Positions 12,401 to 63,635 of a stretch of DNA of 64,000 nucleotides are shown here, in pieces. Source of the stretch: Octopus vulgaris (taxonomy: Eukaryota). Within the stretch, counting starts at the first letter, position 1, and each line of letters begins with the position of its first letter. The notes below the pieces were generated by a model, which was not told the origin of the DNA, ran no database searches, and saw nothing but the letters and a program-made list of their open reading frames with translations. The stretch is from the NCBI GenBank assembly GCA_951406725.2, contig OX597822.1, positions 69,564,001-69,628,000 on the forward strand, given 5' to 3'. Both the position numbers and the translations under genes were made by a program.

Positions 12401-12445
12401 ATTTTTGATAAGGTTCGTTTTTTCAAGAACCGAAACATGTAAAAT
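12401..12445 (+). ncRNA. Decayed type I hammerhead ribozyme
   Basis: ATTT-TTGATAA(for CTGATGA)-GGTTC..GAACC-GAAA-CATG-TA-AAAT. Stems I-III intact, two core transitions. Confidence 0.55.
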
Positions 12446-12521
12446 TCATAAGAAAATTAAAATTTATCTAATATAGTGGCGTTTTCAAACTTCTTTTGTA
12501 CAAATAAATAAATATATATAT

Positions 12522-12771
12522 CGCGGTTTCGATTCCCAGACCGGGCGTTGTGAGTGTTTATTGACTGAAAACACCTAAAGCTCCACGAGGCTCCGGAAGG
12601 GGTGGTGGCAATCCCTGCTGTAATCCTTCGCCACAACTTTCTCTCACTCTTTCTTCTGTTGGCCTGCTCGCTTAGCCAGCGGGGTGGCGTCATTTGAAGG
12701 CTAAAACAATGCGAAGCGCATTGTGACCAGCGATGTGTAGCAACATCTGACAGCCTGGTCGGTCACGGTGA
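12522..12771 (+). mobile_element. 5'-truncated SINE head B + tail 3
   Basis: Head B body followed by GGCCTGCTCGCTTAGCCAGCGGGGTGGCG...GGTCGGTCACGGTGAT. Confidence 0.82.
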
Positions 12772-12949
12772 TATATATATATATATATATATATATATAT
12801 ATATATATATATATATATATATATATATATATCATATTAATTTGCCTATACGGCATATACTCGCTGCCACCAGCGATAGTATTTTTAATAGTATTATCGA
12901 TCTCATGCGCAATTTCGGTCATTATCGATAATATTGCTTCCACTCTTGC

Positions 12950-13330
12950 TGGGATGGACTCGAAAAGAGACCGTTAGTGGACGGACAAGGGATAAAACAA
13001 TAAACAGGATAAAGGCTTAGGGCGACATGACGACAACAATTAAAATGATACGTGATGGCCTAAGACGGTATCATTCTATGTTCGTGTTGCCTTCGATCGG
13101 ACTGGTCACGATTTTCTGAGCACCTCGCTCTACCCCTCCCGTGTCTATAGTCCTTTAGGACAGTTTTCATTTCTCCTTTGCGTTACCTATTTTTGTCTAA
13201 GTCTAATTTTTGCTTTATATGCATTATTTTCATTTTCATTGTTGTTCTGGTGTAGCCCTAAGCCTTTATTCTCTTTATTGCGTTGACCCATATCCGTCCA
13301 CTAACGGTCTTGTCTCGAGTCCATCCCGTT
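12950..13330. repeat. ~100-bp inverted repeat pair (Penelope-like inverted end)
   Basis: GGGATGGACTCGAAAAGAGACCGTTAGTGGACGGA vs TCCGTCCACTAACGGTCTTGTCTCGAGTCCATCCC. Confidence 0.65.
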
Positions 13331-13645
13331 TCGTTATGTTTTGGTCCCATTCCTGGTAAGTTTCTTGCCGGTGTTTCCAAAGTGTACATTCATATATACT
13401 GTGTGTCGACAAATACACACCAGCTGCGTTGCTGTGGTGAGTCAGCCATCTTGGACTTCCTTGCGTTCACGTGAAAGACGGTAACTCACCTGAAAATAAA
13501 AGTAAATATTGTTGTGAGGGAATCTGTGGATACCATATTTATCAATATATTTTAATTACTTTAGATATCACAGCGTCATGAAATCAGAGAACGTTTTTGT
13601 GGGTATCCTTTATATTACACATATATATCCATAAATACATACATA

Positions 13646-14500
13646 CAAGGTGATTGAAAAGTAACTCTCTATTTTAAAATACTTATAATTTATTTATTAA
13701 CTATAATTTTTAGAAAAAGGAATATGTGAAGAAAGCGTATAGCATTCGCACCAGCTTCTCAAACCGCCCGGGAACCGCATCAACTGATTTCATCAGGAAC
13801 TCTTGTAGGATGGATGACATAATTTTTCGTATTCGCCCTTCAAGTTCTTCCAAAGTTGTTGGTTTGGTAGAGTAGACTTGCTCCTTTAACCAACCCCAAA
13901 GAAAAAAGTTGCAGGATATTAAATCAGGCCTTCTGGCCGGCCAATCATGCGGACCTCGACGTCCCATCCATCTCCCAAGGAAGTGGACATTCAGCCACTC
14001 ACGAACAACAATAACAAAATGTGGAGGAGCTCCACATTGCATAAAAATCAAATCTTTAATATTCTCCCAAGTACAGATAACTGGCCAGATTTTATCTTGC
14101 AGCGTGATGAGGTACCTTTCTGCAATCATAATGTTACAAAGAGCATGAAAGGACTCACAATCCTGTCCGAAGTCATTCCACACCATACTGTTACCTTGGG
14201 CCGAGTCTGCATTTTTTTAGAGGTAATACTCGGACCTTCTCCTGCCCAGTAGTGGCAGTTTCGACGGTTCACAAACCCGCCGATATGGAATACCCCTTCA
14301 TCGTTCCAGAAGATATTTGTAAAGAGACCAGACCGTGTTTGTAGGGCTTCTAAATTTCAACCAAAATAATCGATCTCAAAAAAAAAAACATAGAATCAGT
14401 TCCCATTCATTGAAGAACATACACTACAAATTTGGAAAAAAAACTATAGTTAATAAATAAATTGTATTTTAAAATAGAGAGTTACGTTTCAATCACCCTG
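13646..14500 (-). mobile_element. Tc1/mariner rosa-type (DD41D) deleted transposon with ~60-bp TIRs
   Basis: TIRs CA(A/G)GGTGATTGAAA..., TA flanks. ORF 13710-14186 has GAPPH..WPAR.PDL motifs with 41-residue spacing; both catalytic D residues are mutated. Confidence 0.88.
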
Positions 14501-14874
14501 TACATACATACATACATACATACATACATACATACATACATACATACATACATACATACATACATATACACACTCAATATATTCATATCGTCATACGATA
14601 ACATACAGAAGAGAGGACATTACTCTTCAGATCTATTTGGATTCATCTCTCAAGATTACTGGAAGAATTAGAACATGACTCATTTTTTTACACATAATAT
14701 AGAGTAGGTAAAATTTGAGAAACTTAATATAATCGATAAAATATAATCAATAATCAATAAAAAAAAAACGAACGACAGTCGGTGGCAAGAAGAGAGCTTT
14801 CCGAAATGGGTAATAATGAGGAATATGAACAGAATCAAACGAAATTCAAATGAAGCAAAACTATTGGGTTGTCC

Positions 14875-60804: not shown

Positions 60805-61110
60805 CGCTTTACTCTTTTACTTGTTTCAGTCATTCGACTGTGGCCATACTGGAGCACCACCTTTAGTCAAGCAAATCGACTGCAGGACTTATTCTTTGTC
60901 AGCCTAGTACTTATTCTATCGGTCTCTTTCGCCGAACTACTACGTTACGGGGATGTAAACACACCAGCATCGGCTGTTAAGCGATGTTGGGGGGACAAAC
61001 ACAGACACACAAACACACACACATATATATATATATATACACATACATATATACGACAGGCTTCATTCAGTTTCCATCTACCAAATCCACTCACAAGGCT
61101 TTGGTCAGGC
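60805..61110 (-). mobile_element. SINE family A, 5'-truncated
   Basis: Family A tail and body. Confidence 0.82.
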
Positions 61111-61431
61111 ACACACGCACACACTCAGTTACTGCCACACACACACACACCCACACACCCACACACAGATACCAACCATTCTTCACATTCTCCTGTCCCG
61201 GAAAGCACATTTTCTTTGTCAATCTACTTCCAGTCATTTCAAGAATATAACTACACATGGAATGTTGGTGATTTTTTTCCTCCTTCTTCCTTTTATTTTG
61301 AACTTTCCTTTACCTCCTGTTTCCATTTTTTTAATCAATCATGTGTGTGTGTGTCTGTGTGTCTGTGTGCGTGTGTCTGTGTGCGTGTGTCTGTGTGCGT
61401 GTGTCTGTGTGCGTGTGTGTGTGTGTATATA

Positions 61432-61997
61432 TGATGAGGTGGTCAAGCATGATTTTCGAACATTGGGCCTCACAGAGGCAATGACAAAAGACCACTACAT
61501 CTGGAGATATGCTGTGACTGCAAAGACCTGACAAATGAAGTGAGTTCATGGCTCACAGGATGGCCTGTTGTGCTTACCTTGGATTGTAGGGTGACCTGCT
61601 GTGCTTGAGGAGACCTATTGAGTCAAGTACATCAGCATCAAAATAAAAATCAAATGGAAATTGTAGTTGTGATACCCATGCCTTTGCCACATAAAAAGCA
61701 CCATCCAAGCGTGGCCAATGCCAGCGCTGCCTTGACTGCCATCCGTGCCAGTGGCATATAAAAAGCACCAACTGATCATAGCCATTTCCAGCCTCCTCTG
61801 GCCCCTGTGCCGGTGGCACGTAAAAAGCACCCACTACACTCATGGAGTGGTTAACGTTAGGAAGGGCATCCAGCTGTAGAAACACTGCCTGATCAGACTG
61901 GAGCCTGGTGCATCCTCCTGGCTTCTCAGACCCCAGTCAAACCTTCCAACCCATGCTAGCATGGAAAACGGACGTTAAACTATGATGATGGTGATGA
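61432..61997 (+). mobile_element. RTE 3' end copy
   Basis: DEVVKHDFRTLGLTEAMTKD plus 3' UTR similar to 56645-57290. Confidence 0.88.
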
Positions 61998-62384
61998 TAT
62001 ATGTGCATATATATATATATATTATATTCATGTATTGTGTAAGCACATATATATATTATATTCATGTATTGTGTAAGCACACACATATATATATGTGTGT
62101 GTGTGTGTGTGCATGTGTAGATATTTATATATAAATAAATATGCATATTCATGAGTATATATAGATATATATTTTATTTTATTTATTAATTCATAATAGA
62201 ATTTAAGGATAAAAATCATATTAATGATTTTTATCAGGTACTCAGCATGCTATCAAAATTTATAGGTAATTTATACATTAAATTAATAAAAATACATATG
62301 TATATAATTTTATTAAGCGAGCAAAGGCAAAAACGACTTCAGGTCGTTTTCACCCTTGCTCCCTTAATATAATTATATACATAT

Positions 62385-62945
62385 CATCATCATCATCATC
62401 GTCGTCATCGTTTAACATCCGCTTTCCATGCTAGCATGGGTTGGACGATTTGACTGAGGTCTGGTGAACCAGATGGCTGCACTAGACTCCGATCTGATCT
62501 GGCAGAGTTTCTACAGCTGGATGCCCTTCCAAACGCCAACCACTCCGAGAGTATGGTAGGTGCTTTTACGTGCCACCGGCACGAGGGCCAGTCAGGTGGT
62601 ACTGGCAGCGGCCATGCTCAAATGGTGCTTTTTATGTTCCACCTGCACAGGATCCAGTCCAGTGGCACTGGCAACGACCTTGCTTGAATGTTTTTTCACG
62701 TGCTACCAGCGCAAGTGCCAGTAAGGTGATGCAGGTAATGATCATGCTCAAGTGGTGCTTTTTACATGCCATCAGCACAGAGGTCAGCTTGTTGCTCCGG
62801 CAACAATTACGCTCGTATGGTACTCTTAGCGCTCCACTAGCACGGATGCCAGTCATCAAATTTGATTTTGATTTCGATTTCACTTGCCACAACAGGTCTT
62901 TGCAAGCAGAGTTTAGTGTCCAATAAATGAAAGGTACGCATAAGT
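62385..62945 (-). mobile_element. RTE 3' UTR copy
   Basis: (CAT)n and TTTCCATGCTAGCATGGGTTGGACG, reverse complement of the RTE tail. Confidence 0.85.
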
Positions 62946-63527
62946 ACATATGTATATTATTATTAATTTAATGTATATATATATATATATATATATATAT
63001 TATATAATTAGGGCTTAGTAAAATAAATTACTTTGCCACATACTGAATTTGCTAGAAATTGTTGATAGTTATTTCGATCTTGGAAGGATGGACTTGGTGA
63101 TAACTTAACTGTATCTATTTTTATTATTTTTTATTATTATTACTATTATTATTATTATTATTATTATTATTATTATTATTAATAGTAATTTTTATTAACT
63201 TTTATAGCTTTAGAATTTTATGAACTGTACCACGGATTTAATTATTATTATTTTTCATCTCCATATGTGTTAGCCCCTTTTTTTATAAAAAAAACTATTA
63301 GCTAAATATGTATGATATCGGTACTTATTAATATTATATATACACTGTTATATATTTTGTTTTATTTTGTTCTGGTTACCTTCCTTTTTGTACAAATATG
63401 TATTATATTATACAAGTGTAGCATTATGATGTATAAGTTTTTATATTTTACTTTTTTTTATATTTTTATATTTATATGTATATGATTATATAATATTTTT
63501 CACTATTATAACAAATTTAATTTAATT

Positions 63528-63635
63528 CTCTGAAGAGGCCGTGGGGCATCTTTGTTAATGCCTCATTTATACCTGCCTTTATGGCTTATAGGTTAAATGG
63601 GGTATGACTGTCCTCACTGCCGAAACAGCTGTCAG
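63528..63635 (+). ncRNA. Hammerhead ribozyme with ~85-nt stem II
   Basis: CT-CTGAAGA-GGC..long hairpin..GCC-GAAA-CAGCTG-TC-AG. Core intact, stem I only 2 bp. Confidence 0.72.

Follow-up and report, generated by a model that had tools for sequence, protein, structure and literature searches.

Hammerhead motifs in a window of the Octopus vulgaris genome as likely 3' ends of Penelope-like elements that may act through stem III pairing

Cervera and De la Pena (2014; PMC4209133, in the portion covered here) described minimal and palindromic-helix-III type I hammerhead ribozymes of metazoan Penelope-like elements (PLEs), and Craig et al. (2021; PMC8557442) reported, in the sections covered, a Hydra clade of PLEs with hammerheads that have a long palindromic stem III, and listed an octopus family, Hydra-1_Obim, in the part of their File S2 consulted. 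Activity as dimers is known from published work for such motifs. Here we analyzed a stretch of 64,000 nucleotides from Octopus vulgaris (assembly GCA_951406725.2, contig OX597822.1, positions 69,564,001 to 69,628,000, forward strand), termed the window, in which a first-pass annotation had noted about 11 hammerheads with CTGANGA..GAAA cores and differing stem III palindromes. As judged from sequence comparison, these sites are likely to be hammerhead motifs in the 3' ends of PLEs and of short offshoots, which would probably cut RNA only when two copies pair via the stem III palindrome.

Searches of the species' own genome (2.80 Gb, 227 contigs) revealed that all 11 cited sites, as well as the four partial ones, are hammerhead-derived ends of dispersed repeats, with 27 to 3,224 candidates per family at first look. 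Families and sites are named here by window position. Family alignments showed the hammerhead derivation of 57394 and 36498 and confirmed that the partial sites at ~36498, ~49400, ~55066 and 58052 had been correctly read as hammerhead remnants. A strict scan, defined by both boxes, a perfect palindrome and at least 3 pairs in stem II, returned 4 sites in the window against 0.20 +/- 0.40 in 40 local dinucleotide shuffles, and 9 intact motifs against 0.5 in shuffles for 800 kb of spread samples; the shuffled control that the first-pass annotation had proposed is cleared under strict settings, although relaxed scans of the window lose the contrast (7 vs 2.9 and 9 vs 5.8). An Rfam scan of the window, which contains many microsatellites as well as LINE and transposase fragments, gave no hammerhead family among the 150 matches listed of 216, these being microsatellite-driven microRNA matches only.

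The hammerhead origin of the 11 sites thus stands, but the proposed core does not hold throughout, as both boxes are exact in only six copies (33428, 34357, 38955, 54416, 58141 and 63528); the 12401 site has the U3-A8 core TTGATAA, which brings the copies with a known core to seven, and the core is broken in the remaining four (49822, 52069, 52977 and 57394). Alignments showed an intact family majority for 49822, 54416 and 57394, and intact copies were seen for 52069. Likewise, there are several distinct families, but they are not all unrelated as had been suggested, given that five belong to the Hydra clade and that 54416 and 52069 have an internal loop II motif in common. The 11 sites reduce to 9 insertions, because a single insertion has 33428 and 34357 as its arms and 52069 and 52977 are likely another such pair; 57394 and 58052 are a further likely two-arm pair. 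Each of the 9 insertions is of a different family, and 7 palindromes are used among them. Two sites, both on the minus strand, lie beyond the earlier list: the motif 25515-25547 and, as a remnant, 54919-55000. The features are as follows.

12405..12441, plus strand: hammerhead with U3-A8 core TTGATAA, 6-nt palindrome ACATGT, stem I of 4 bp and stem II of 5 bp; 3' end of a Neptune/Nematis-type PLE, copy start near 11570 (12401 site)
25515..25547, minus strand: twelfth motif, with U3-G8 core, 8-nt palindrome ACTATAGT and stem I of 6 bp; young family, 1,577 candidates, 96-99% identical
33341..34461, unstranded: one insertion of the tRNA-like-headed element with an 11-bp target duplication, made up of inverted arm (33341-33505), head (~33506-33590), microsatellite, nested repeat and sense arm (34304-34461)
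33433..33468, minus strand: intact minimal hammerhead with ACGT, bulged A, stem I of 5 bp and stem II of 6 bp (33428 site)
34362..34397, plus strand: other arm of the 33428 family, exact boxes, palindrome decayed to ATGT (34357 site)
36498..36600, plus strand: truncated tail of a 38955-family relative, its hammerhead reduced to the cleavage base, half the palindrome and the stem I 3' arm
38959..38988, minus strand: exact boxes, 9-nt palindrome ACTCAGAGT, weak stems I and II, each reduced to 2 bp in this subfamily; Hydra-like by anatomy only (38955 site)
49372..49413, minus strand: partial, lacking box 1; box 2, ACGT and the tail come from a sister of the 58141 family
49825..49900, minus strand: Hydra-clade hammerhead with ACGATCGT; window copy broken by G12A (49822 site)
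52073..52150, minus strand: Hydra-clade hammerhead with ACATATGT, broken by A9G and G12A; likely inverted arm of the insertion containing 52981 (52069 site)
52981..53040, plus strand: 52069 family, with G12 and the 3' strand of stem II lost to a deletion (52977 site)
54422..54495, plus strand: intact Hydra-clade hammerhead with ACATATGT, stem I of 5-6 bp and long stem II (54416 site)
54919..55000, minus strand: decayed remnant, relative of the 57394 family
55063..55109, plus strand: partial, with box 2 and tail of an ACGT family that has A6U as its commonest core, without box 1
57398..57440, minus strand: Hydra-clade hammerhead with 9-nt ACTATTAGT; box 1 broken here (C3A, G8U), intact in the family majority (57394 site)
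58052..58085, plus strand: partial, box 1 of the other arm of the 57394 family, split by the 58141 insertion
58145..58171, minus strand: intact minimal hammerhead with ACGT; the 5' end of its short element is fixed ~85 nt upstream (58141 site)
63530..63633, plus strand: hammerhead of a very young Hydra-clade PLE with ACAGCTGT, long stem II and a weak stem I of 2 bp; the window has the terminal repeat only (63528 site)

Pairing between two copies through stem III is strongly supported by the genome-wide comparison. In two genome patterns the stem III centre was left unconstrained, and stem I was never required; nevertheless, the free centre was self-complementary, giving a perfect palindrome by eye in 92 of the first 100 rows for the 8-nt C3-G8 pattern and in 95 for the 6-nt U3-A8 pattern, where chance predicts 6% and 25%, these rows not being independent in that about 60 of the 8-nt rows have one centre and come mostly from one tandem family. 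The centres used amount to 9 of the 16 possible in the 8-nt pattern, with two more in a further pattern, and to all four in the 6-nt pattern. In addition, double changes separate related lineages (ACATATGT/ACACGTGT, ACCTAGGT/ACCATGGT and ACCGGT/ACTAGT). The central pairs of an 8-nt palindrome are impossible in a monomer hairpin, for which the predicted energy is +2.0 to +2.9 kcal/mol, compared with -6.4 to -13.3 kcal/mol for the homoduplex. Of 29 motif types, 25 have a stem I of at least 3 pairs, where re-dealing the arms gives 4.0 (some loci were hand-picked), and 28 have a stem II of this length; homodimers are predicted to be favourable for 8 of the 10 window families. Thus, dimerisation through stem III, as put forward in the first-pass annotation, is supported in that the palindrome behaves like a pairing surface, and the covariation it had asked for across copies was found, the 40 lineages examined having 18 different palindromes.

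Core type and palindrome length are not strictly tied to each other, as a test of such a link gave a trend only: U3-A8 cores have 5,703 genome matches with a 6-nt palindrome (control 120) and 676 with an 8-nt one (216), and C3-G8 cores have 1,809 with 8 nt (31) and 992 with 6 nt (160), with spacer ranges that differ between the patterns. Both features vary inside a single lineage, as one stem II lineage, found at 25515-25547 (-) and in its genome matches, carries C3-G8, U3-G8 and U3-A8 cores and palindromes of 6, 8 and 9 nt.

We propose that a transcript running through two identical ends, either from terminal repeat to terminal repeat or along a tandem array, would fold as a double hammerhead and be cut to unit length. 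Because any palindrome works when the partners are copies of one sequence, the palindrome and stem I could drift by compensatory changes, the palindrome sequence being free so long as it is symmetric, and near family-specific pairing would be a by-product of such drift and not a selected code. Most genomic copies have undergone truncation or decay, and efficient cutting was likely not required for the spread of some short subfamilies.

A coding link to PLEs exists for six families, five of Hydra type and the 12401 family. The 63528 family, with 99% identity across 40 scored copies, has its motif twice as a direct repeat ~5.6 kb apart in two of five fetched stretches, and in the stretch L197 the motif lies within 704-bp direct repeats that flank a reverse transcriptase and an endonuclease. 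Translations of L197 and of a second stretch, L198, show by eye RWR in place of RWK, DKT, a CxCX5C linker, and CxxC and CxH without CCHH. The Hydra-type elements have (TA)n at their ends, which fits (TA)n targets, and some copies of the 54416, 52069, 49822 and 57394 families have Hydra endonuclease sequence in the same orientation, at a distance of 205-937 nt on the upstream side; the same query found no match in the other four families tested, and a Pfam search of the Hydra-type proteins found none either. On these marks we assign the five families (63528, 54416, 52069, 49822 and 57394) to the 3' ends of Hydra-clade PLEs. The young Hydra-type unit (L197:1588-7884 and L198) is ~5.6 kb long, and in the copies inspected its coding region is divided among two or three frames. 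Presumed-RNA contigs of four runs were compared with this unit and three cover most of it; such contigs are uninformative on strand, ends and cutting, and no conclusion was drawn from them.

For the 12401 family, U3-A8 motifs flank a 784-aa protein (L268) with RVT_1 and a weak GIY-YIG match. Its GLKF, DKG, CX4CxxC linker and CCHH endonuclease agree with the Neptune/Nematis marks GxKF, DKG, CX2-5CxxC and CCHH, as given in the portion of the published description covered. An endonuclease piece 58% identical to this protein lies 739 nt upstream in a copy of the 12401 family, which we accordingly class as a PLE of Neptune or Nematis type, the two clades not being told apart. The 12401 element has a 101-nt duplication in its 3' region, at window 11838-12041, which recurs in other copies of the family.

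The anatomy of the insertions points in the same direction. Opposite-strand copy pairs recur in the family match lists and loci, and one-ended tails were found in the 12401, 38955, 54416, 52069 and 33428 families; inverted arms and one-sided tails are a published feature of PLE insertions. The type I hammerheads of Penelope type named in the first-pass annotation were, on coding links and anatomy, a sound identification for PLEs and their tandem offshoots.

The ACGT families (33428 and 58141) are short elements. The 33428 element is ordered as a tRNA-like head, an (AAY)n tract and a hammerhead tail, and is abundant, with 12 hammerhead matches in 800 kb; all eight matches to its head in the spread sample adjoin the hammerhead tail. 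The head has words which we take to be A-box and B-box-like. Its tRNA origin was not confirmed, as ARAGORN made no call in 6 loci, a relaxed ARAGORN run gave noise only, and Rfam gave no tRNA match. With its head and minimal hammerhead, inverted arms, one-sided tail and target duplication, the 33428-type element is a candidate SINE carried by PLE enzymes; we found no Penelope-carried tRNA SINE in the literature searched, mostly openly readable work.

Several observations weigh against PLE-derived ends that cut as paired copies. Predicted homodimers are unfavourable for 12401 (+0.4 kcal/mol) and 38955 (-0.4 kcal/mol). A coding partner was not found for 4 of the 10 families (33428, 58141, 38955 and 25515) with Hydra and Neptune-type queries upstream, no Penelope/Poseidon query being among them, nor in extra stretches searched for the ACGT families (16) and for 38955 (3). 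Moreover, published minimal motifs cut poorly even as dimers, and one published PLE hammerhead, in the part of the source covered, was protein-dependent, dispensable for insertion in vitro and without read ends at the cut site. Finally, neutral drift is deduced from a lack of avoidance in a hand-picked set and not from a tree-based test.

The first-pass annotation had proposed that the different palindromes act as family-specific dimerisation codes. This was examined in 40 lineages hand-picked from 83 motif types, restricted to perfect palindromes, with decayed and non-palindromic types excluded. The 18 palindromes coincide in 40 of the 780 lineage pairs, and among the 26 lineages with 8-nt palindromes there are 31 sharing pairs against ~20 expected from random use of 16 centres, the figure of 31 being inflated by kinship. 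In the window itself, with 7 palindromes for 9 families, ACGT serves two families and ACATATGT serves two. Unrelated families thus often have the same palindrome and show no avoidance, and the palindrome alone is not supported as a family-specific code. A full heterodimer, however, needs both stems I, and cross-pairing in both directions in addition to a palindrome match occurs in only 8 of the 780 pairs (8 of the 40 that share a palindrome), mostly sisters, so that palindrome and stem I together are nearly family-specific, probably as a neutral by-product.

Such a two-part key might instead be under selection, with palindrome and stem I diverging among coexisting families since dimers formed across families would cleave or sequester RNA other than their own. 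The rarity of compatible pairs would fit this idea, as would the absence of any pairing, among the 45 possible between the ten window families, that combines a complete stem III with closure of both stems I, and the prediction that unlike 8-mers pair weakly, at best with -6.5 kcal/mol. If true, it would amount to RNA-level self-recognition among mobile elements and to a naturally evolved set of dozens of dimer ribozymes, orthogonal to one another and diversified against cross-cutting among ~250,000 ends, a source of orthogonal ribozyme pairs. We nevertheless regard selection as unlikely, given that random divergence yields the same picture and that a near family-specific key is expected from drift because both partners are copies of one sequence. 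The excess of shared 8-nt palindromes runs against it, and the most abundant class has ACGT alone (14,206 exact genome matches), with three of its families cross-compatible. One-sided heterodimers are also predicted in 16 of the 40 sharing pairs, and the two ends of one transcript pair in cis, which makes a code unnecessary.

The genomic load of these ends bears on whether cutting is needed at all. A spread sample of 80 stretches of 10 kb from 29 large contigs contained 71 hammerhead-end remnants, or 89 per Mb, with none in reversed controls. The window has 15 hammerhead ends, or 234 per Mb, which is 2.6 times the average density. Genome-wide this gives about 250,000 hammerhead ends, a rough figure that comes from a partial library and includes tail fragments. 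Intact motifs number ~31,000 when the strict scan of the 800 kb is scaled up, and five exact patterns, with small overlaps, total ~23,000 above controls. The 8-nt C3-G8, 6-nt U3-A8 and ACGT patterns exceed their controls 48- to over 1,000-fold. The very large ribozyme load put forward in the first-pass annotation is therefore supported in terms of ends, but scaling up the window's density gives a figure 2.6-fold too high and most copies are not intact. Two subfamilies with altered cores, A6U with 14,944 and U4C with 7,720 exact copies, both relatives of the window's 55063-55109 and 49372-49413 partial sites, are among the most abundant hammerhead-derived ends and are short elements without a known reading frame. 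Positions 6 and 4 are invariant in the published hammerhead consensus; with over 22,000 exact copies in total, these subfamilies suggest that efficient cutting is unnecessary for their spread.

Thus, the fold could have been retained as a binding or dimerisation signal for a PLE protein, with cutting secondary or lost. The altered cores at consensus-invariant positions would be accounted for in this way, as would the spread of a 38955 subfamily with 2-bp stems and published hammerhead mutants that, in the part of the source covered, left in vitro insertion unaffected. The altered cores, however, come from short elements for which no reading frame is known, whereas the coding families retain features that are catalytic constraints, namely both boxes, the covariation of C3-G8 and U3-A8 and, in 28 of 29 types, a cleavage base other than G, and we consider a protein signal slightly less probable still than a selected key. 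Chance matches in AT-rich, repeat-rich DNA, for which only the near-shuffle level of relaxed scans and the four copies without an intact core could be cited, are refuted for practical purposes by the strict scans of the window and the 800 kb, by the genome patterns and by the fact that every site has a family.

The window also contains other repeats. LINE-type reverse transcriptase frames were recognized by eye at 9911-11245 (-), 39210-40850 (+), 51175-51780 (+) and 55113-56756 (+); they have no match to the PLE queries, and the first two are inverted relatives with 75-82% identity. A minisatellite at 14873-16446 consists of 28 copies of a 59-nt pyrimidine-rich unit, and in two arrays (27439-28071 and 29971-30520) a 184-nt unit, which belongs to a common SINE-like repeat, is present in ~3 copies each. 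A long inverted repeat at 47029-47243 is a MITE-like hairpin that had the top Rfam score, yet far under the family threshold. The sequences at 13710-14216 (-), 44503-44964 (-) and 46220-46615 (-) are presumably fragments of Tc1/mariner-like transposases.

The centres that covary where a monomer hairpin is impossible provide clean comparative support for the double-hammerhead model. In addition, the set of families offers a panel for comparing homo- and heterodimers and, with its >22,000 altered-core copies, bears on whether cutting is required of PLE hammerheads. The literature searched, mostly openly readable work, contained no heterodimer or code test, and the words "ribozyme" and "hammerhead" are absent from the main text of a 2026 octopus repeat annotation, as far as it was covered.

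Among the described systems, the motifs of Cervera and De la Pena (PMC4209133), in the portion covered, are alike in their type I layout, a bulged base after A9, the G10.1-C11.1 pair, the palindromic 15.2-16.2 pair and loop 3, and a U3-A8 variant. They also occur mostly as single truncated copies, in close opposite-strand pairs and in many families per genome, with differing long palindromes within the genome of Aedes aegypti. That work counted thousands per genome and lists no cephalopod in the portion of its supplement covered, and the octopus more commonly has 8-9-nt palindromes and stem II inserts of up to 85 nt. The Hydra clade in the covered sections of PMC8557442 has the same RWK-like, DKT, CxCX5C, CxxC and CxH marks and (TA)n targets, and the part of File S2 consulted assigns several different palindromes to Hydra magnipapillata, including the very ones found at 38955 and 57394. 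In contrast, the Hydra clade there is under 3 kb, compared with ~5.6 kb for the octopus unit, the listed palindromes are mostly 9-10 nt where the octopus often has 8 nt, and the motifs are drawn as monomer stems, with dimers not discussed in those sections. The small hammerhead variants of Lunse, Weinberg and Breaker, as given in the covered part of a review (PMC6765202), cleave as dimers and have a short palindromic stem III and PLE association, the last two as here.

The schistosome elements Sm-alpha and Sj-alpha (PMC6765202, same part) resemble the 33428 family in having a promoter-like head followed by a hammerhead, but theirs is canonical, whereas the 33428 family combines a minimal motif with a PLE insertion pattern. 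Non-LTR retrozymes (PMC7229834; bioRxiv 10.64898/2026.07.22.740005, in the portions covered) consist of tandem units with a hammerhead each, and tandem 360-535-nt units of one hammerhead each, with the same motif types as in the window, are present elsewhere in the octopus genome. By comparison, the window sites are single or inverted ends, with no tandem array at any window hammerhead site. The retrozyme-like arrays that we saw elsewhere in the genome have units of ~535, 400 and 360 nt, with one palindromic hammerhead each. A six-figure load has precedent, since the axolotl has 126,247 hammerhead motifs according to the covered portions of the same two sources. PLE hammerheads, dimer cleavage, differing palindromes in one genome and an octopus Hydra family are thus already published, and to this known class the present study adds a census of at least 40 lineages and 18 palindromes in one genome.

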